This document shows positions 1,435-44,176 of a DNA stretch of 64,000 nucleotides, one piece after another. Every line of letters begins with the position of its first letter. The stretch's first letter is position 1. The position numbers and the translations under genes are program-made. Source of the stretch: Myxococcota bacterium (GTDB lineage: Bacteria > Myxococcota_A > UBA9160 > SMWR01); assembly GCA_036336695.1 (NCBI GenBank), contig JAYZFQ010000084.1:9726-73725 (forward strand), given 5' to 3'. The notes beneath the pieces were generated by a model. The model was not told the DNA's origin. It worked only from the letters and a program-made list of their open reading frames with translations, and ran no database searches.

Positions 1435-1461
1435 GCACTTCGACCGAGAAGCGGGCTCGAA
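1435..1461 (+). promoter_or_regulatory. Putative ECF (sigmaE-like) promoter of the GH16 gene
   Basis: GCACTT-N16-TCGAA, about 80 nt upstream of ATG 1542; a similar element lies at 32885-32912. Confidence 0.35.
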
Positions 1462-1541
1462 ATACTTCCGGGAGGGGATGGTCGAACGGCTGGGCGTTCG
1501 GGGCGTCGTTTTCAAGTCAACGACAGCGGGAGGATCTGCAG

Positions 1542-4500
1542 ATGGGGAGCGCCGGAATCGATTGTCTGAGCCAGGTCCCGACTTCCGAACCGCAGGCGCG
1601 TGCGCCCCGGAGTGCCGGCGCCCTGGTGGCGGGACTGTTGCTCGTGGTCTTGCTCCAGGTGGGTTGTAGTGACATTCCCGGCTTGTGCGCCCAGACCGGC
1701 GGGTGTGTCGTTTTGCCGCTTCCGGCGCGCTTCGAGCGCGACGTTCCGGTTCCGGGTGGGACGGTGCGGGTCGGGCTGGTGGAGGTCGAGGGCGGCATTG
1801 CGCGGTTTTTCGTCGTGGGAGCGCCATGGGCGGACCTGGAGGTGGAGAGCGACACGATTTCACGCCTCACCCGCATGCTCCACGCGGGTGGCCACAACGA
1901 ATACCCGGTCCACGGCTTGACACCCGGCGATGCGATCGATTTCCGCTTTCGCGTCGGGACCGGAATCTCTCCCGGGCAGGTCTGGAGTGACTGGTTCCAG
2001 CATGTCTACGTCGGTCGCAACGCCGAGCCCGCCACCGGATCCACACCGCGCGTTCGCCCCCTGGCCGGCGGGCGGTTGTCGTTCGAAGTCGACGACGTTC
2101 CCTGGGCGGAGCTGCACCGCGAAGAGGCGGGTGTCGTTCGCGGGCGGCGCCTCGGCGTTGACGGGAACCGTCACGCGCTGACCCTGGACGGTCTCGTGAA
2201 CGGGGAACTCGTCGTCTACCGCTGGGTGATTGGCATCGACCAGGTCCCGGGTCAGTACGACACCGACTGGACCACTCTCGTCTACGAGGATCCCTCCGTG
2301 GCAACCGCGCCGGCTCCCGCCGCCGGCAGCGAACCGCCGCAGCCCGCGGAAGCGGACGAATGGATTCTGGTGTGGGGGGATGAATTCGATTCCCCCGCTG
2401 GTGAGTCGCCGGATGCATCGCGCTGGGTGTTCGACCTCGGCGGGTCGGGCTGGGGCAACGCGGAGCGCCAGTACTACACCGACCGACCGGAAAACGCGTC
2501 GATGGACGGAGAGGGACACCTCGTCATCGCGGCCCGAGAGGAATCGCTGCCTGGAACGTCGTGCTGGTACGGAACGTGCCGCTACAGCTCCGCCCGCTTG
2601 AAGACCCAGGGGCGCTTCGAACAGCAGTACGGGCGAATCGAGATGCGGGCCCAGCTTCCGTTCGGCCCAGGACTCTGGCCGGCGTTCTGGATGCTCGGTG
2701 CGGAACTCGGCTCGGTGGGCTGGCCCGCCGCCGGGGAGATCGACGTCATGGAGAACATCGGTCGCGAGCCGTCCGAGGTCCACGGGACGGTGCACGGGCC
2801 GGGCTATTCCGGGGCAGGGGGAATCGGTTCCGGGTTTCGCCTTCCCGAAGGAGAACGGTTTGCCGATGCCTTCCATACGTTTGCGATCGAATGGGCTCCC
2901 GAATCGGTCCGGTGGTTCGTCGATGGCCACCTCTACCAGACCCTGACGCCCGCGAACCTCCCCCCCGACGCGCCGTGGGTCTTCGACCAGCCCTTCTTCC
3001 TGCTTCTCAACGTCGCCGTGGGTGGTTATTGGCCGGGTGATCCCGACGCGACCACGGCGTTTCCCCAGCATCTGCGGGTCGATTACGTGCGGGTCTTCGA
3101 GCGGCAAGAGTCTCCCTCCGGCACCACCCGGGAGGGATCCCGGCGCATCGAAGCCGAGGATTTCGACGCCCAGTGGGGTGTGCTCACCGAACGCGTCTCG
3201 AGTGCGAGCGGGGGAGCGAACATCGGCTGGGTCGCCCGGGGAGACTGGAGCGTCTACCGAGACGTCGACTTCGGGAACCGGGAGGTCGAATCGGCCGCCC
3301 TGCGGGTGGCCTCGGGGGCAGGCGTTTCCGGGGAAGTCGCGGTTCGGCTCGATTCCGTGTCGGGCCCGCGGCTCGCGGTCTTTCCCCTCGAGGATACGGG
3401 GGGCTGGGAGGACTGGGTCCGCCTGGAGCGCCCGTTGGAGACGCTTCCTGACGGCCGGCGCGATGTCTATCTCGTGTTCGACAGTGCGGCAGGCCGTCGA
3501 GAACTCGGGAACGTCGATTGGCTCGAGTTTGGCCTGGCCCCGATCGCCGAACCCGTGTCTCCGGAAGGGGTTGTGCCGCCCGCCGCCCCGGCGGCCATAC
3601 CCGAGACCGGCTCGGAAGCTCCCTCGGACCCGTCCGGTGCGAGCGAGCAGCCCGTGGCCTCTCCGCCCGCGACCCAGGCCCCCGGGCCCGTAGCCTCCGC
3701 GAAGCTGGAGGAGACCCAGCGCAGTCTCTACCTCCTCTCGGGCGCTAGTTCCGCGGGGGTCGGCGTGCTTTCGCCGGCCCCGGGTTCGGCGGGTTCGTTC
3801 GACCGGATTCCCGGGGACGGGTCCCCGATTGCCTGGGAGGCCCGGGACCTGGTTGCGCCCTACGTCCCCAGGCTTGGGGGTACCCGCCTCGAACTGTGGT
3901 TGGACGGTGTCCAGACGCCCGGCATCTATGCCCAGGCGCGGGTGCTCTACGACTTCGAAGGCGACGGCACGCCCGATCGGGTCGAGACCTTCGTCGCGGC
4001 TCCCGCGCACGACCACGTCGGTCTCGACCTCTACGACTCGGAAGCGTTTCCGCTGGTCGCGGAGCAAGGTGTCTTCGCAGACCTGGACGGGGGGACGGTG
4101 CGGCTGGAGTTGCGCGACCCGCATTTCCTCGACGGCCCGGAGGTGCGCGTCGGCGCCTCGCTTCGCGAGCACCAGGTGTCCAAGGTGGATGTCCCCTTCG
4201 AGCTGAACGTCGCGGAATTCACGGCCGTCTCCGTGACGCCGGAAGCCAACGCGTTCCACCCCGCGATCGTCTGCGCCGGTCCGGCAGTCGACCCGCGCTG
4301 TGGGCCGGCGTTCGATCCGGGCCGGGCCCTGACCGAACGCGAACTCGAGGCGGCGCTCGAAAATGGCCTGGAAGCCTTCCGCCTCGCCGGCGCACACGGA
4401 GCCTGCGCCGCGTGCCACAGCCCGGATGCTTTCGACCTCGCTGTGATCGGCTACAGCGACGCGGACATCCGGCGGCGGGCGTTGGAACACGTTTCCCAAA

Positions 4501-32993: not shown

Positions 32994-35921
32994 ATGAAGA
33001 GTTCGGACTCGAGACGGCGCCCTTTCGCATACCGTGCGGGGGGCTTCGCGATTCTTGCGATCGGATTGCTCTCGACGCTTGCGGCGGCGCCGCCGGCCGG
33101 TGCGCACGGTTCCCTGGAGCAGCCGCCATCGCGTACGACCGCCTGTCGCTTCCATGACCTCGACAACCCCATGTGTGCCCAGGCCTGGGCGGCCGAGCCC
33201 CAGGCCTTGTACGACTGGATGGAGGTCAACATCGGGGACGCCGCAGGGCGCCATCGCGAACTGATTCCCGATGGTCGGTTGTGTGGCGCGGCGCGGGAGA
33301 AGTACGCGGCGTTCGACCAACCGGGGGATTGGCCGGCCCGGGCGATGGTTCCCGACGCCGACGGGCTCCACACCGTTGAATTCTTTGCCACCGCGCCCCA
33401 TGCCGCGGAGTACTTCCGTTTCTACCTGACCCGCGAGGGTTTCGATCCCCTGGTGGATTCGCCGACCTGGGACGATCTCGAACTGGTGCACGATTCCGGC
33501 CCGGTTCCCTACGTCGATCTCGCGGCGTCGCCTCATTACCCGTTCCGTTTCGCGCTGCCCGGACGGGAAGGCCGGTACGTTCTCTATTTCGTCTGGCAGA
33601 GGAGCGACAGCCCCGAGGCGTTCTACGGCTGCAGCGATGTGCTGCTTGGCGCGTCGGACGGCGCCCCTGTCGACGAAGCTCCCGTTTCCGCGCCGGAGCC
33701 GTCTCCTGAGGCGTCGGAAGGACCCGTTGCTCCTGCGCCGGGGCTGACGGGGGTCGATGTTTCGGTCGGCTTGACGGACGACTGGGGCGGCGGTGCGTGT
33801 GGCGAGGGCGTCGTGACGAACCACGGGACCAACGCCGTCGTCTGGGAAGCGCACGTGGAACTCGGGGGCATGGTCACGACCTACTGGGACTCGGAGATCA
33901 GCCTCTCGACCCATCCGCATGGAGAACACAGCGCGATCGCGCAGAACTGGCGCGTGGTCGGCGCCCCGTGGAACGCGACGCTCCCGGCCGGGGGCGCCAC
34001 GTCCTTCGGGTTCTGCATCGATCGGACGGCCGCTGCGCCGGTTACCGAGCCTTCACCCGATCCGGTGTCGCCCGCCGAGCCCGCCGAGCCCGCCGAGCCC
34101 GCCGACGAGGCGCCGGCTTCGAACGAGGAACCGGCGGTGCCAGCCGTGCCGGAAGACGGGGACGCGGAACCTGCAACCCCGCCGGCAAGTCCCGCAAGCC
34201 CGAGCGAGGCGATCCTCGCCGGTTATTTCCCCGAGTGGGGAATCTACGCGCGGAACTACCGCATCGCCGATGTGCCTGCCGCGGAGTTGACGCACCTGAT
34301 CTATGCCTTCGCGGACCTGGATCCGAACGGGAACGTGACGCTCTTCGATGCGTTCGCCGCGGTCGAGAAACGCTTCCAGGCCGGCGAGTCGGTTGCGGGC
34401 GTGGCCGATGCCACCGATCCCGATGCCGGGATTGCGGGAAACTTCGGGCAGATCGCACTCCTGAAGGCGCGTCATCCGCACCTCCGCGTGAGCATTGCGA
34501 TCGGGGGCTGGACGCTGTCCCGGAACTTCAGTGCCGTTCTTGCGACACCATCGGGCCGAGACCAGGCCAGCGACTCGGTGGTCCAGTTCGTCGAGCGGTA
34601 CGAGATGTTCGACGGCGTCGACTTCGACTGGGAATACCCGGGCGGCGGGGGACTGGCGGAAAACGGCACGAGTGCCGATGACGGTCGGAACTACGCGCTC
34701 TTCCTCGGGCTGGTCCGCGAGAAATTGGACGCCCTGGGCAGCGCGACGGGCCGCCGTTACGAAATTTCGGTCGCCTCTCCGGCGGGGTACGACAAGATCG
34801 CGAACTTCAATCTTGCGGGTCTCGTGGACGTCGTCGATTTCTTCAACGTCATGACGTACGACTTTCACGGCACCTGGGAGAGCGTCACGGGGCACCTGGC
34901 TGCCTTCGAAGCCGACCCGGGCGGCTACGACATTTCGACGACGACCCGCCTGTACCTGGAGGCCGGCGTGCCTCCGGAAAAGATCGTGCTCGGCTCGCCG
35001 CTCTACACCCGAGCCTGGTCCGGCGTGGCCGCCGGAAACGACAGGGGGTATGCAGCGGCCGCTGCAGGGCCGGCCCCCGGGAGTTTCTGGGATCAGCCCG
35101 GCATGTACGACTACAAGGATCTGCTCGGGCGCTTGCGCGCTGCGGACAGCAGCTGGGAACTCTACTGGGACGACGCTTCCCAGGCGGCGTATCTCTACGA
35201 TGCGAGCCAGGGCATCTTCAGTTCCTTCGAGACGCCGACCACGGTGGCCTTGAAGTCGGAGTGGGCCCGTCGTTCCGGCTTTGGCGGGATGATGTTCTGG
35301 GACCTCTCCAGCGATGCCACGGGAGACGCCGAGAGTCTCGTGTCTGCTGCGTACGACTTCTGGAGCGGTGGACGCTCGTTCGAGGCAGTTGCCGCCGGCT
35401 CGCAGCTTGCCTTCGATCACGTGCTGGGCGGCAACGGTCTCGTCGACCCCTTCGGAGATGGGGCAGCCCCTTCGGATCCGCCTGCAGTGGAAGAGCCCGC
35501 AACCGAGGAGACCCCGCCGGAAGCGCCCGCGTCCGCTGAAGCGGAGGTGCCGGAAGCGCCCGAAGACGACCCCGGTGTCCTCGAACGGCTTTCGATCACC
35601 GTCGGAGGCTCCCTGTGGTGGCAGGGCCTGACCGCGCAACTCGCGGTGCGCAACGAGACGGCGGAACCCATCGACGGGTGGAGCTTCGCCTTCCGCAGCT
35701 CGCACCGGGTTTCGGGAGCGCCCTGGGGCGCGGAGATCGTGTCGGTCGACCTCGGCAACGGGTTCTATGAGTACCGGGTCACCGGTACCGGCTGGGCGTC
35801 CGTCATTCCGGCGGGTGGCTCTGTCGAGGTGGGCTTCAACGCGAGCCAGGGGACGCTCATTGGAAACGCGGGCGTGCTGACGGCAGCGCAGCTGTTCGAC
35901 GGGGGGCTGGTCGCCGAATGA
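32994..35921 (+). CDS. Secreted AA10 LPMO - CBM2 - GH18 chitinase - CBM2 fusion
   Basis: Signal AGA|HG places His at the mature N-terminus (33105); PPSR, LCGA, TAPH, WQRSDSPEAFYGCSDV (AA10); GAPWNATLPAGG..SFGF (CBM2); YFPEWGIY, IGGWTLS, FDGVDFDWEYPG, MTYDFHG, GGMMFWD (GH18). Confidence 0.93.
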   Translation: MKSSDSRRRPFAYRAGGFAILAIGLLSTLAAAPPAGAHGSLEQPPSRTTACRFHDLDNPMCAQAWAAEPQALYDWMEVNIGDAAGRHRELIPDGRLCGAAREKYAAFDQPGDWPARAMVPDADGLHTVEFFATAPHAAEYFRFYLTREGFDPLVDSPTWDDLELVHDSGPVPYVDLAASPHYPFRFALPGREGRYVLYFVWQRSDSPEAFYGCSDVLLGASDGAPVDEAPVSAPEPSPEASEGPVAPAPGLTGVDVSVGLTDDWGGGACGEGVVTNHGTNAVVWEAHVELGGMVTTYWDSEISLSTHPHGEHSAIAQNWRVVGAPWNATLPAGGATSFGFCIDRTAAAPVTEPSPDPVSPAEPAEPAEPADEAPASNEEPAVPAVPEDGDAEPATPPASPASPSEAILAGYFPEWGIYARNYRIADVPAAELTHLIYAFADLDPNGNVTLFDAFAAVEKRFQAGESVAGVADATDPDAGIAGNFGQIALLKARHPHLRVSIAIGGWTLSRNFSAVLATPSGRDQASDSVVQFVERYEMFDGVDFDWEYPGGGGLAENGTSADDGRNYALFLGLVREKLDALGSATGRRYEISVASPAGYDKIANFNLAGLVDVVDFFNVMTYDFHGTWESVTGHLAAFEADPGGYDISTTTRLYLEAGVPPEKIVLGSPLYTRAWSGVAAGNDRGYAAAAAGPAPGSFWDQPGMYDYKDLLGRLRAADSSWELYWDDASQAAYLYDASQGIFSSFETPTTVALKSEWARRSGFGGMMFWDLSSDATGDAESLVSAAYDFWSGGRSFEAVAAGSQLAFDHVLGGNGLVDPFGDGAAPSDPPAVEEPATEETPPEAPASAEAEVPEAPEDDPGVLERLSITVGGSLWWQGLTAQLAVRNETAEPIDGWSFAFRSSHRVSGAPWGAEIVSVDLGNGFYEYRVTGTGWASVIPAGGSVEVGFNASQGTLIGNAGVLTAAQLFDGGLVAE
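34071..34106 (+). repeat. 9-bp tandem repeat encoding the PAE-PAE-PAE-PAD linker
   Basis: CCCGCCGAG x3 followed by CCCGCCGAC. Confidence 0.85.
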
Positions 35922-39391: not shown

Positions 39392-40789
39392 TTGTCGGTT
39401 TTTCAGCGCGTGTCCGCGAAGCTCCAAAAAGCCGCGTCGGTTTGCCCGGATTCCTGCCCCCCGCGCTGGGGTGCGGTGGCGAGTTCCTGGTGGGCGCTTG
39501 CGTTGGCCGTCGCGGTCTTCGGTTGTAGCGACTCGCCCCAGCAGGTTTCTGCGCCCGATGTTTCGCGATTCCGCGGTGTCGTGTTGCTGTGCCTGGACAC
39601 GCTCCGTGCGGATCACCTTGGTGCCTACGGGTACCCGCGGGAGACGAGCCCGGCGATCGACGCACTTGCGGCGGAGAGCGTCGTGTTCGAACGCGCGATT
39701 GCCCAGGCGGCGTCCACGCTTCCCTCGCACCGCGCTCTCTTTCAATCGCGCCATGTGTCCCAGGAGACCGGCGAAGCGCCAGTTCTCGCGGAGGTCTTGC
39801 GGGAACATGGTTTCCGTACGGCCGCCTTTACCGGCGGTGGCTATGTCGCCGCGACCTTCGGCTTCGATCGCGGCTTCGAGCGCTACGAAGAAGACGAGCA
39901 GGGGCTCGGGGCGGCCCTGCCGCGTCTGGAAGCCTGGCTCGAGGAAATCGGCGACGCGCCGTTCTTCATCTTCCTCCACACCTACGAAGTCCATCTCCCG
40001 TACGACCCCCCGGCTCCCTTCGATTCGATGTTCGGTTCCGAATATTCAGGTCGCGTGGAGGGTTCGGAAACGCGTTCCCTCTTGCGCCGTCACAAGGGTC
40101 TGGATGGGGCCGCTGAGGACCCGCCGGAACCGCTTGCACCCGCGGACGTCGAACGCATCGTCGCGCTCTACGATGGCGGGATCCGCTACGTGGACGGCTG
40201 GGTGGGCGAACTCATGGAGCGGCTCGGTCGTCTCGGACTGTCGGATGAGACCCTCGTGGTGCTCTTCTCCGACCACGGCGAAGAGTTCGGAGACCACGGG
40301 TCGTGGCTCCACTCCACCACGGTCTACGAAGAAGTCGTGCGCGTTCCGTTGATCTGGCACGAGCCGGGTGCCACCCCCGGTCGGGTCGAGACCCAGGTTC
40401 GTCTGGCCGACGTTTCGCCCACACTCCTGGATGTCTTTGGAATCCCGATCCCGGAGAGCTTCCGCGGTCGGAGTCTGTTGCCGCTCATTGCAGGCGCGGA
40501 AGAGCCGCATCGCCCGGCGATGAGCCATGCGCGCCGCGCAAAGTCATTTACGCAATGGCCGTGGAAGCTCATTGTCGATGGCAGCCGGATTCGCCTTTTC
40601 GATCTCGGTTCGGACCCCGGGGAACGCCTGGACCTGTCCGCCCGGGAGCCGGGGCGTACCGATGAGATGGCGGCGTCGATGGTCGGCTTCGCGGAATCGG
40701 GCGAGGGCACAGGGACTTCGGCGACCGGGGGGGAGGCGATCGACCCGGAGCTTTCCGAGCGCCTGCGCAGCCTCGGTTACCTGGAGTAA
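39392..40789 (+). CDS. Sulfatase-like (alkaline phosphatase superfamily) lipoprotein with atypical TxPSH motif
   Basis: LDTLRADHLGAYGY, STLPSH, HTYEVHLPY, YDGGI, SDHGEEFG, LFDL..DPGE, LRSLGY; lipobox VFGC; start uncertain. Confidence 0.85.
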   Translation: MSVFQRVSAKLQKAASVCPDSCPPRWGAVASSWWALALAVAVFGCSDSPQQVSAPDVSRFRGVVLLCLDTLRADHLGAYGYPRETSPAIDALAAESVVFERAIAQAASTLPSHRALFQSRHVSQETGEAPVLAEVLREHGFRTAAFTGGGYVAATFGFDRGFERYEEDEQGLGAALPRLEAWLEEIGDAPFFIFLHTYEVHLPYDPPAPFDSMFGSEYSGRVEGSETRSLLRRHKGLDGAAEDPPEPLAPADVERIVALYDGGIRYVDGWVGELMERLGRLGLSDETLVVLFSDHGEEFGDHGSWLHSTTVYEEVVRVPLIWHEPGATPGRVETQVRLADVSPTLLDVFGIPIPESFRGRSLLPLIAGAEEPHRPAMSHARRAKSFTQWPWKLIVDGSRIRLFDLGSDPGERLDLSAREPGRTDEMAASMVGFAESGEGTGTSATGGEAIDPELSERLRSLGYLE

Positions 40790-40800
40790 CGCGCCGCGGC

Positions 40801-41565
40801 TCAGTCGAGATGCGTCTGCAACGCCGCCAACACCACCTCGGGACCCGAACGGCGTTGGTAGTTCGCGGAGACGTCCATCCACAACACCTTGCCGTCGGCG
40901 TCCACGAGCAGCGAGGTCGGGATGGGCAACGCTTCGATCTCATCCCTGGGGTCACCGGAGTGGGCTCCCTGGTTTCGCAACCCGAACGCGTCCGTCACCC
41001 CGAGGGCTCGGTCGGAGAGCATGGTTGCTTGCAGTCCGTGAGCGCGGCGGCCCTTGCGGATTTCTTCGGGGTGGTCGGTGCTGACGGTGACTACCTGGAT
41101 GCCGCGCTTGTCGAACTCGTCTCGAAGCTCTTCCCATCGCCGTAACTCGGCGACACAGTACGGTCACCAGTGGGCGCGAAAGAACTTGATGAGGACCGGG
41201 TTTCCGCGCAGGCGCGCGGAGTCGAAGGCCTGGCCGCGATCGTCCAGCGCGCTGAAGCTGGGCATCGTATCGCCGACCCGGATGGCGTTCGGGGGCAGGA
41301 TCTGTTCGCTGATGCTCACGGTAAAGGGAAGGAACAGCCCGATGACGATCGCCGGTACGGCGGCGATGCGGCCCAACCATCCGGCCTTCTTGACGAACGC
41401 GGCAATGGCGAGTGCAGCGGCGCTGAGCCAGACCGCGATGAAGAGCGTACGATTTTCCGGGAGGGCTACGTTCCTCGCCAGGTTGAACCAGACCATGGTG
41501 CAGCCAACGGCCAGGGCGAGCGCGATGAGACCGAGCTGGGTTCCCCGGTTCTGCAAGGCCTTCAT
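40801..41565 (-). CDS. Membrane-anchored AhpC/TSA peroxiredoxin-like selenoprotein (Sec at TGA 41164-41166, UxxC)
   Basis: AGGAGA RBS; 3 N-terminal TM helices; VGDTMPSF...PVLIKFFRAHW-TGA-PYCVAELRRW...VVTVSTD...LSD...PIPTSLLVDADGKVLW. The frame is continuous across the TGA. Confidence 0.88.
41137..41153 (-). promoter_or_regulatory. Bacterial SECIS-like hairpin
   Basis: On the mRNA: UGA + 10 nt + UCGCCG-AGUUA-CGGCGA. Confidence 0.7.
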
Positions 41566-41701
41566 CGCCAATCTCCTCGCCCGGTCTGGTGCGGTCGCCG
41601 GTCTCGGGTCGAAATCGACGCTCCCGAAGGCGTGAGAGTAGTGGCCTTGCAGGCGAAGGCAACTCGTTCCGAAGGCACGAGGCGACTCGTCTTGCGCGGC
41701 A

Positions 41702-44065
41702 TCATGCATCCCCCGCTTGGCCGGCGGCGCGCAGCGCTTCCACGGTGGCGCCCAGGGTCAGGAGTTCGGGCAGGAGTTGAGGTGGCTTGGTGGGGTCCGC
41801 GGGGTAGACGAGGTACATCGGCACGCCTGCGCGGCCCCATTGGGCAAGCGCCTGGGTAATCCCGTCGTCGCGCAGCGTCCAGTCGGCCTTGAAGGTCGCG
41901 AACTCCCAGCGCGCGAGTTCTTCCTGGACCGCTGCGTTGGAAAGCACCACGGCTTCGTTGACCTTGCACGTGATGCACCAGTCGGCGGTGAAGTCGACGA
42001 AGACCGGTCGCCCCGCGGCACGCTCGCGATCGATCGCCAACGGGTCGAAGGCGAGCCAGTTGATTCCGCCTGGAGAGGATGCGGCGTCGTCAGACCGTTC
42101 ACGCGGCGCCGGTGCGAGGGGTAATGCGGTGAGCGACCCGACCGCGAGCGCCACGATGACTGCGGCGATGGCGCGTGCCGCCATGGGGCGCGCGGTGGCC
42201 TGGACGGCGCCGAAGACCCAGAGGAGGAATGCGATGGCGATGAGATGCGCGAGCAATAACGCCTGGGCGTCCACACCGATGGCGCGTCCTGCTACCCAGG
42301 CCAGCCACACCACCGTGGCCAGCAGCGAGAACCCCAGCACCTGGCGGACGCGCAGCATCCAGGCGCCGGGGCGCGGAACCAGGCGCGCCCAGCCAGGCAC
42401 GAGCGTCACGAGCACGTAGGGCGCGGCCAGTCCAACGCCAATCGCGGTGAACACGGCGAAGATCACCGTCCCCGAGCTCGCGAAGGCGAAGCCGACGGCT
42501 GTGCCGAGGAAGGGCGCGGTGCAGGGCGTTGCGAGGGCGACCGCGAGGCTCCCTTCGAAGAAGCTGCGTGCGGGGGAGGTGGGGCCGGTGTTGGGGCCGA
42601 GGTTGGGGCCGGAAGGTTGCAGCGTGATCTCGAAGGCACCGAAGAGGTTCATCGCGAAGACGACGAGGAGCGTGCAGATCACCGCGAGGAACCCTGGGTC
42701 CTGAAGCTGAAAGCCCCAGCCCACCGCGGTGCCGGCTGCGCGGAGGGCGACCACGACCGAGGCGAGCGCGGCCATCGATGCCAGCACGCCTGCCAGGTAG
42801 GCCACGCCGTGTTGCACGACGTGGCTGCGGTCGGCGCGAGCCAGGTCGGCAATTCCAAAAACCTTGATGGCGAGCACGGGCAGCACGCACGGCATCAGGT
42901 TGAGGATCAGGCCGCCGATCAGTCCAAGCACGAGCGCCCAAGCGAGCGAAGGCGGGCCGAGGCCGCCGGGCGTCTCGGCGCCGATGCTGTGCTCGGCGCC
43001 CGCGGGCTGCGAGGGCAGGGCGACCACCACTTCGAACGCAGCGGGGTCGGCGGTCTCCGCATGGGTGATCGGAACGTCTACGGCGAGGTGGGTGTTGCCG
43101 CTGGGTCCGGAAATCGGCACGACACCGCGCAGGCGTTGGCGGTCCACGTGGGGTTCATTCTCGAAGGCGTGCGCGTTGAGGGCGAGGGAAAAGCCGCGCG
43201 TATTCTCGGCCTGTGCGGCGGGTGGGCGCGCGAGGCCGAGTGCCGAGAAGCCCAGGTTTGCTTCTTCCAGGGGGAAGAACGCCCCTTCGGCGTTGCTGGC
43301 ATCGAGGGTCCACGGACGGCACTCGGCGCCGGAATCGGCCGCGGAATCGACGCACGACAGGACCTCGAGGACGAGTGGGACGTCGTCTCCCATATCCGCC
43401 GCCGCCCGTGAGGCCCGTGCGTTGACGGCGACGCCGAGCGATTCGGGTGTCCGTGGCAGGCGCGACGCGGCTCGTTCGAAGCGGGCACGGATCTCGGGGG
43501 GCGGCGGTGTCGTCCGAACGCTGAGCGGCACCTCTTTCGCGAGTTGGATTTTCCCAGGAACGCATTCGACCCGGCACGCAACGAAGCCCGTGTCCACTTC
43601 GAGGCGCCACGTTCCCTGTGTGTCTTGGGATACGAGGGCGTCGCTTGCGAGCAAGACGTCGTTCTCGTAGCCGAAAGTCGTCAGCAGGCCGTCTGCCTCC
43701 TGAAAGACCCTGGGTGCCGGCCACTGGGTCGGTTCGATGGCCGCGTCTGTAGCGCGCCAGACGAACTTGGGGGGGGAGCCTGCATCGCCTGGGTTGCGCC
43801 AATAGAGATGCCAGCCCGGGTCGAGGTCGAAGAGCACACCGACCCGCACGCGATCGCCGGGCGCGACGGAAGCCGCATCAACGAGGAGTTCGGCCGCGAC
43901 CCGGGCGTCGCCCGAGCCGAGGGCGGCCTCTCCGCGGGGGCCGGGGTCGGCGGCCGAGGCACTCGCAGCGAGCCAGGGCAGGAGCGCGACGCCGATCAGC
44001 GCCAACTGCGCGAGGCTGCCGCGAATCGCCGGTTTCGCCGACCGTTTGAGCGCTCGATCGTTCAT
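41702..44065 (-). CDS. dsbD: DsbD-like thiol:disulfide interchange protein (N-terminal, TM and thioredoxin domains)
   Basis: GWHLYWRNPGDAG, ACRVECVP, LNLMPCVLPVL, ATPCTAPFLG, VDFTADWCITCKVNE, GRAGVPMY. Confidence 0.9.
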   Translation of the reverse strand: MNDRALKRSAKPAIRGSLAQLALIGVALLPWLAASASAADPGPRGEAALGSGDARVAAELLVDAASVAPGDRVRVGVLFDLDPGWHLYWRNPGDAGSPPKFVWRATDAAIEPTQWPAPRVFQEADGLLTTFGYENDVLLASDALVSQDTQGTWRLEVDTGFVACRVECVPGKIQLAKEVPLSVRTTPPPPEIRARFERAASRLPRTPESLGVAVNARASRAAADMGDDVPLVLEVLSCVDSAADSGAECRPWTLDASNAEGAFFPLEEANLGFSALGLARPPAAQAENTRGFSLALNAHAFENEPHVDRQRLRGVVPISGPSGNTHLAVDVPITHAETADPAAFEVVVALPSQPAGAEHSIGAETPGGLGPPSLAWALVLGLIGGLILNLMPCVLPVLAIKVFGIADLARADRSHVVQHGVAYLAGVLASMAALASVVVALRAAGTAVGWGFQLQDPGFLAVICTLLVVFAMNLFGAFEITLQPSGPNLGPNTGPTSPARSFFEGSLAVALATPCTAPFLGTAVGFAFASSGTVIFAVFTAIGVGLAAPYVLVTLVPGWARLVPRPGAWMLRVRQVLGFSLLATVVWLAWVAGRAIGVDAQALLLAHLIAIAFLLWVFGAVQATARPMAARAIAAVIVALAVGSLTALPLAPAPRERSDDAASSPGGINWLAFDPLAIDRERAAGRPVFVDFTADWCITCKVNEAVVLSNAAVQEELARWEFATFKADWTLRDDGITQALAQWGRAGVPMYLVYPADPTKPPQLLPELLTLGATVEALRAAGQAGDA

Positions 44066-44120
44066 GGCCCGAGACCTCTCGTGACTCGCGCGGGAAACCG
44101 GCCCTGCATCCGCGGGAGCC

Positions 44121-44176
44121 TTGACATTACCGACTGAGAGTGGAACTCTCAAGATTGATTGAGAGTACTGCTCTCA
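44121..44176. promoter_or_regulatory. TTGACA -35 box plus two TGAGAG-N5-CTCTCA palindromic operators
   Basis: TTGACA 44121-44126; palindromes at 44135-44151 and 44160-44176, between divergent dsbD and tetR. Confidence 0.75.

Follow-up and report, generated by a model that had tools for sequence, protein, structure and literature searches.

A predicted membrane-anchored UxxC selenoprotein, divided by gene calling at an in-frame TGA codon, next to dsbD in a Myxococcota bacterium

The stretch of DNA analysed here (hereafter, the window) comprises 64,000 nucleotides from a Myxococcota bacterium (GenBank assembly GCA_036336695.1, contig JAYZFQ010000084.1, positions 9,726 to 73,725 of the forward strand). 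On its minus strand, it carries a redoxin-like gene interrupted by an in-frame TGA codon. This gene is directly preceded, on the same strand and at a distance of 136 nt, by an intact dsbD gene (Table 1). The ordinary ORF listing divides the redoxin-like gene into a 181-residue N-terminal ORF, beginning at an upstream ATG (41709), and a 73-residue tail. When the TGA, which occurs in the motif FFRAHW-U-PYC, is read through, the same frame continues for 120 codons. The ATG at 41565-41563 is favored as the start codon because orthologs, which also have one in-frame TGA, align with the protein from residue 1, and they do so over residues 1-254.

Table 1. Features of the selenoprotein locus in the window.
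Feature	Position	Strand	Basis or remark
Selenoprotein gene, complete; 254-residue predicted product	40801..41565	-	Predicted Sec at residue 134; terminal TGA 40803-40801
Shine-Dalgarno-like GAGGAG, 7 nt 5' of the ATG	41573..41578	-	Sequence read directly; putative function
Transmembrane helix 1, residues 7-31	41473..41547	-	AlphaFold2, hydropathy
Transmembrane helix 2, residues 40-58	41392..41448	-	AlphaFold2, hydropathy
Transmembrane helix 3, residues 63-84	41314..41379	-	AlphaFold2, hydropathy
Thioredoxin-fold redoxin domain (AhpC-TSA/Redoxin match), residues 97-229	40879..41277	-	Pfam, ResA alignment, Foldseek
UGA codon as predicted Sec (U134), first residue of the W-U-P-Y-C redox motif	41164..41166	-	
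SECIS hairpin GUCGCCG-AGUUA-CGGCGAU, within the codons for V-A-E-L-R-R-W	41136..41154	-	Comparison; bSECIS rules
Full-length dsbD (DsbD_N, DsbD_TM, Thioredoxin_7), candidate redox partner	41702..44152	-	Pfam

The protein obtained by reading through the TGA gives one continuous match to each of the Pfam families AhpC-TSA (4.1e-26) and Redoxin (1.9e-21), both spanning the TGA. Its score against PF00578 is 91.8 bits for a cut-off of 26, and its AlphaFold2 model has a mean pLDDT of 94.7 and a pTM of 0.90. The original prediction, made from the sequence of the window, was that of a hidden membrane-anchored UxxC selenoprotein split by the ORF caller, with about 120 further codons carrying family motifs after the TGA. 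Both parts are borne out, by the domain match across the TGA and the 120 codons following it as well as by the conservation of the TGA and the Sec machinery of the genome, which are described below.

In the window's order, 61 genomes were sampled. Among the 60 matches listed, 58 contain exactly one in-frame TGA, one contains none, and one contains two; all of the 26 best order-level matches (E ≤ 1.2e-44) have one. At the level of the phylum, 301 genomes were evenly drawn and the gene was counted at E ≤ 1e-30. It was found in 25 of them, all belonging to the window's order, and each of the 29 matches of this sample has one in-frame TGA. Relatives found in public genome contigs belong to Myxococcota, Halieaceae and other Gammaproteobacteria, Acidobacteriota, and Binatia; among the best 80 loci of these 304 relatives, TGA is present at the motif in all 80.

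Sec and Cys occupy the same position in the family. Metagenome loci retrieved with a profile of the Cys form (80 loci kept) have TGA in 62 cases, TGC in 16, and TGT in two. Moreover, HWCPYC is found at the Sec columns of 20 of the 21 aligned full-length database homologs (252-326 residues). The alignment of the motif with the FxRxxWCPxC signature of redoxins, first noticed in the window itself, is thus confirmed by WCPYC at the equivalent columns of the Cys homologs. The remaining full-length homolog, P0010, from a metagenome, has Trp at this column (HWWPYC); this could reflect either a change from TGA to TGG or gene calling with a code in which TGA means Trp. In a FastTree phylogeny of 213 rows, five Sec/Cys changes are needed, at least three of which are forced by well-supported branches. 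The tree is read without a root, and no direction is claimed for these changes.

Logan contigs from four marine metagenome runs span positions 41164-41166, and no alternative letter is listed at the site; the assembly itself may derive from one of these runs. TGC or TGT in the reads, which had been named as an outcome that would speak against selenocysteine, is therefore not found in the metagenome contigs covering the codon. The sole variant near the UGA in these contigs is synonymous and turns the codon that follows from CCG into CCC. As a side observation, the summed contig depth in the marine metagenome runs increases 10- to 50-fold across 41139-41190, a segment corresponding to the active site and the SECIS element, as would be expected if many different organisms had near-identical sequence there.

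The search for selA, selB, selC, and selD that had been proposed with the original prediction found all four genes in the genome, above curated cut-offs. The tRNA-Sec scores 75.6 bits and is called SeC, with anticodon tca, by ARAGORN, and selA, selB, and selD score 522.7, 282.7, and 269.2 bits, respectively. TGA is also used as an ordinary stop codon: it terminates both dsbD and the selenoprotein gene itself, where no SECIS-like hairpin follows the final TGA (40803-40801). Because the in-frame TGA is conserved, pairs with Cys in homologs, occurs in a genome equipped with the Sec machinery, and contrasts with TGA codons that serve as stops, comparison of sequences indicates that the codon at 41166-41164 almost certainly encodes selenocysteine.

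Other selenium-related genes were observed in the same genome. Contig C77 (locus L017, 1393-3624, minus strand) carries a selD gene for a 743-residue protein with an N-terminal pyridine nucleotide-disulfide oxidoreductase domain; the GOS paper (PMC2398784) mentions a matching fusion, Ndh-SelD. On contig C52 (locus L231, ~1456-1956, minus strand), a gene interrupted by an in-frame TGA specifies a classical Sec-peroxiredoxin, WFPKAFTPGU-TREL, with Sec at the peroxidatic position and a hydrophobic N-terminal leader. Finally, contig C113 (locus L233, 1441-2400, plus strand) carries a second UxxC selenoprotein gene, with the motif FYRSAVW-U-PPC, in which AhpC-TSA is fused to a DsbD_N-like domain; the product has ~400 residues and a basic C-terminal tail, and no signal peptide was seen.

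A hairpin follows the UGA directly, beginning at the 10th nucleotide past it (9-nt gap). It had originally been described as a 6-bp hairpin with an AGUUA loop starting 10 nt after the UGA, and this description stands, the stem having 7 bp if the closing G-U is counted with the six Watson-Crick pairs. Its energy, when folded alone, is -10.2 kcal/mol. The rules for bacterial SECIS elements given in the legend of Fig. 2 of PMC13188914 specify a loop of 3-9 nt, a stem of 4-16 bp, an MFE ≤ -7.5 kcal/mol, a G within the first two loop positions, and a UGA-loop distance of 16-37 nt. The hairpin agrees with these rules, with a 5-nt loop, 7 bp, a G at loop position 2 followed by a U, and a distance of 16 nt. 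The single-sequence fold energy of a 73-nt stretch of this GC-rich gene is not unusual as compared to shuffled sequences (z = 0.47), and an Rfam scan of positions 40700-41700 at permissive thresholds returned no SECIS family, only a chance snoRNA-like match (E 1.2). The case for the SECIS element is therefore a comparative one.

Codon usage in the two forms of the gene provides this comparison. Among 96 distinct Sec forms, codons +4 to +9 begin with GTC only, GCC only, GAG only, and TTR (TTG/TTA) only; the first Arg codon is CGG, CGT, or CGC, and 86 of the 96 have CGA as the second. The 25 codons upstream of the hairpin use two to six synonymous codons each in these same Sec forms. In 16 distinct Cys forms encoding the identical VAELRRW, Val is encoded by GTC, GTG, or GTT, Ala by GCC, GCG, or GCA, and each Arg by four codons, whereas Leu is encoded by CTG, CTC, or CTT and never by TTR. 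A hairpin in the same register has energies of -0.1 to -8.3 kcal/mol in 10 Cys forms, vs. -10.2 kcal/mol here. Judging from these codons, the hairpin is under constraint at the RNA level in the UGA forms only, the synonymous sites being free in the Cys forms.

Pairing is kept in 99.2% of 623 pair cells from 89 distinct sequences. The stem is nearly invariant, and real covariation concerns one pair in one clade, that of the Halieaceae-type sequences: in 21 of the 89 sequences, a C-G pair is replaced by G-C or G-U, through an Ala to Gly change and a matching silent change of Arg. The covariation score was reached in none of 500 shuffles; because the 21 sequences form one clade, they possibly reflect only one or two events. 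A longer lower stem of the SECIS element, pairing CCC with GGG, was considered and rejected as the GGG is not conserved. UGA 41166-41164 would be recoded by SelB and Sec-tRNA(Sec) upon signalling by the downstream hairpin. A remoter subfamily was also observed in the genomes of relatives (loci L044-L050, 29-36% identity, motif FYRG[DSGH]W-U-P[FY]C), and in four of its loci, L044-L047, the UGA is followed by a different hairpin, such as AUCGAGCUG-GUU-CAGCUCGAU.

With regard to the enzyme class, the nearest sequences of solved structure are of the ResA type (E 1e-8). Their WCxxC motif aligns with WUPYC, and the cis-Pro loop PLPTS of ResA aligns with PIPTS of the protein. With Foldseek, the model matches BCP and ResA structures with TM scores of 0.80-0.86, normalised to target length; these matches cover the soluble domain only, and BCP-type peroxiredoxins and ResA are about equal. 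In the ESM Atlas, a natural Cys homolog falls into generic “AhpC/TSA/Redoxin” clusters only. Peroxiredoxins have a PxxxTxxC active site and a conserved catalytic Arg before the following β-strand. Upon alignment with the Sec-peroxiredoxin of the same genome (C52), the Thr is matched by Sec134 and the Pro by Arg130, and Cys137 coincides with the peroxidatic position, so that only the Cys of the strict peroxiredoxin motif is retained; this alignment stops short of the cis-Pro-loop region. Features of ResA/TlpA/CcmG are present: a thioredoxin fold, the cis-Pro loop, and the W-C-x-x-C motif, with Sec for the first Cys. Since Sec aligns with the Thr, Arg replaces the Pro, and the cis-Pro loop matches that of ResA, the domain is predicted to be a ResA/TlpA-like thiol-disulfide oxidoreductase of the CxxC class and not a true peroxiredoxin. 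The qualification “peroxiredoxin-like” given originally hence holds for the fold and has to be abandoned for the enzyme type. By analogy with CxxC enzymes, whose exposed N-terminal Cys it would replace, Sec134 would act as the attacking nucleophile and would form a selenenylsulfide either with the substrate or with Cys137.

Taken as a whole, the gene encodes, with a probability of about 90%, a single 254-residue predicted selenoprotein having three N-terminal transmembrane helices and a ResA/TlpA-type domain, with UGA recoding directed by a SECIS element. Other readings have to be weighed against this one. If the protein were a true peroxiredoxin, it would be a membrane-bound hydroperoxide reductase in which Cys137 is peroxidatic and Sec134 auxiliary or resolving. 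AhpC-TSA is indeed the best Pfam family, the BCP thiol peroxidase is the top NCBIfam model, Bcp4, BcpB, and Tpx are among the top Foldseek matches, and Cys137 aligns with a peroxidatic position, as described above. However, the active-site Pro and Thr are replaced, and the region expected to hold the catalytic-Arg loop is matched by the cis-Pro loop in the ResA alignment. Moreover, the NCBIfam scores are below the cut-offs for BCP (59 vs. 140 bits) and PrxU (18.8 vs. 270). A peroxidase is for these reasons improbable. It counts against the preferred reading, in turn, that no NCBIfam model at all reaches its cut-off, the scores being 47.2 vs. 170 bits for ResA, 27.7 vs. 230 for TlpA, and 20.8 vs. 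123 for DsbE.

Two further readings concern the TGA itself. It could be a real stop codon, the gene being either a pseudogene or a source of a 133-residue membrane protein followed by an untranslated or separately started remnant. This is how gene callers treat the locus; the N-terminal fragments of 139-172 residues that fill the protein database and the downstream 73-residue ORF, which starts with ATG, are in keeping with it. Against a stop, protein-level conservation extends over the TGA and the 120 codons after it, down to 42% identity and in several phyla, the thioredoxin fold would be cut at its active site, the Cys homologs are single chains, and the SECIS element is constrained specifically in the TGA forms, all of which makes this reading highly implausible. 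UGA is also leaky in some contexts, and the Trp of P0010 might be taken to indicate read-through without selenium, by near-cognate insertion of Trp or Cys or by a local change of the code. Genome-wide reassignment of UGA is contradicted by the TGA codons that terminate the selenoprotein gene and dsbD. With the complete Sec machinery in the genome, a hairpin that fits the bacterial SECIS rules and is conserved only together with TGA, and a position that pairs with a redox Cys, selenium-free read-through is hardly credible, and selenocysteine insertion remains the preferred reading.

The N-terminal part of the protein consists of three transmembrane helices, as had been proposed from the sequence of the window; they are found both in the AlphaFold2 model and in the hydropathy of the family, the mean Kyte-Doolittle value of the helix segments being 1.9-2.2 over 46 family members. 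The fusion of these helices to the redoxin domain had been thought to be the unusual part. This view does not hold: the module, with a V-x-[IL]-P loop motif and S-x-Q past helix 3, is conserved in Sec and Cys forms and thus characterizes the family as a whole rather than this locus. The possibility of a lipoprotein, raised by AVGC near residue 22, was rejected, since orthologs do not retain the Cys and a single long helix is predicted for this segment.

The distribution of charged residues distinguishes two types of proteins. According to the positive-inside rule, segments rich in Lys and Arg indicate the cytoplasmic side. In type A, which corresponds to the window's clade, Lys and Arg are found at the N-terminus and in loop 2 (bias 0 to +3, +1 for the window protein). 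In type B, they are found in loop 1 and after helix 3 (bias -3 to -9). Of the 34 Cys forms counted, 32 belong to type B, as do most Sec forms from metagenomes; the other two Cys forms have a bias of 0 and lie within the type A clade. All four of the two-copy genomes examined have one copy of each type. The charge bias of type B points to a redox domain in the cytoplasm (C-in). That of type A weakly suggests a redox domain outside (N-in/C-out), a soft call because N-terminal counts derived from loci may include untranslated residues. Seven metagenome loci (L142, L176, L177, L198, L217, L224, and L228) have a type B gene adjoining selB, and SelB winged-helix domains were seen on L176; some of these type B genes also adjoin a gene for a membrane subunit of the NADH:quinone oxidoreductase/antiporter type.

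The dsbD gene upstream of the selenoprotein gene has readable Cys motifs in its transmembrane and thioredoxin parts. ResA/TlpA/CcmG-type proteins are clients of DsbD/CcdA, and the dsbD neighborhood observed here matches this relationship. Adjacency to dsbD was found in 20 of ~110 loci tested, all from the closest clade, with DsbD proteins 55-78% identical, and was absent from the remaining loci. A consensus scan for promoters and terminators between dsbD and the selenoprotein gene gave nothing usable that would bear on co-transcription. A search for a neighbor conserved family-wide found none; spurious ORFs of high GC content dominate the clusters. Six loci with the same dsbD synteny (L051, L059-L061, L068, and L080) come from MAGs titled Spirochaetaceae or Spirochaetales, and their genes are closest to those of Myxococcota MAGs; these labels may be wrong.

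A second association with DsbD-type domains occurs in Halieaceae. A convergent neighbor is common to a cluster of 10 Halieaceae loci, and in L128, the only one assigned with Pfam, this neighbor is an AhpC-TSA + DsbD_N gene. The Halieaceae fusion neighbor contains WUPPC in 7/7 loci examined and has ~400 residues with no evident signal peptide; its ortholog in the window's genome is located on contig C113, away from the 3-TM gene. Orthologs of the redoxin-DsbD_N fusion were observed beside the 3-TM gene in L078, L107, L117, L121, L124, and L128. Because the family is associated in two independent ways with DsbD-α-type domains, a shared redox relay is suggested, in which the 3-TM selenoenzyme would probably exchange electrons with a DsbD-α-type domain.

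The two associations leave the compartment unsettled. The chances are about even that the 3-TM selenoenzyme accepts electrons from the adjacent DsbD in the periplasm. A cytoplasm-facing enzyme, for example one feeding DsbD, is a possible but tentative alternative. A broader scheme, which is rather unlikely, would involve two paralog types of opposite orientation, placing the UxxC module on both faces of the membrane and wiring it to DsbD-α-type domains, type A being extracytoplasmic and reduced by DsbD. If the DsbD link holds, the selenoenzyme would be tied to the envelope thiol-reduction pathway. A literature search combining selenoprotein, DsbD, and periplasmic found nothing related.

A class of Prx-like selenoproteins with a UxxC motif has been described. 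Table 1 of PMC13188914 lists it under “PF00578, UxxC”. In the GOS study (PMC2398784), it corresponds to the Table 2 entry “Prx-like 1, pfam00578, UxxC”, which comprises 225 selenoproteins along with 2,740 Cys homologs. The protein resembles this class by a PF00578 score above the cut-off, Sec as the first residue of UxxC, the existence of Cys homologs, occurrence in marine samples, and a SECIS element directly after the UGA. It differs in that the domain is here always preceded by the conserved 3-TM module. In the text available for these papers, the word “transmembrane” is absent from PMC2398784, PMC1794560, and PMC13188914, and “membrane” is absent from PMC2398784; the supplementary sequence sets of the GOS “Prx-like 1” class (PMC2398784) may already include the 3-TM family. 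On the basis of domain and motif, we assign the predicted protein to the known Prx-like thiol:disulfide oxidoreductases (PF00578, UxxC). It is an unannotated member of this class with a particularly clear SECIS signature.

Two other systems are related. ResA, TlpA, and CcmG share with the protein the cis-Pro loop, an N-terminal membrane anchor, and a W-C-x-x-C motif corresponding to W-U-P-Y-C; here, however, Sec replaces Cys, three helices are present instead of one, and the family scores are below the cut-offs. Sec-peroxiredoxins (Prx TxxU; PrxU), one of which is encoded in the same genome (C52), have the superfamily fold in common, but their Sec is peroxidatic (TxxU), whereas here Sec stands in place of the Thr (UxxC) and the Pro is exchanged for Arg.

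Sec forms of the family are miscalled in the protein database, where many N-terminal fragments of 139-172 residues are found, one cluster having 691 members; one NCBI record labels the N-terminal fragment “hypothetical protein”. Hundreds of orthologs from marine and soil Myxococcota, Halieaceae and other Gammaproteobacteria, Acidobacteriota, and Binatia are thus cut at the Sec codon. Because they are filed as hypothetical membrane proteins of ~140 residues, selenoproteomes and redox inventories are undercounted. The family also offers a very clean natural experiment on the evolution of SECIS elements, one set of seven codons being frozen in the UGA forms and free in the Cys forms, and the 19-nt element could become a search pattern.

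Among the public runs matching the locus, none is listed as an RNA run. Elsewhere in the window, positions 32994-35921 of the plus strand encode a large protein of secreted type with LPMO_10, GH18 chitinase, and CBM_2 domains.
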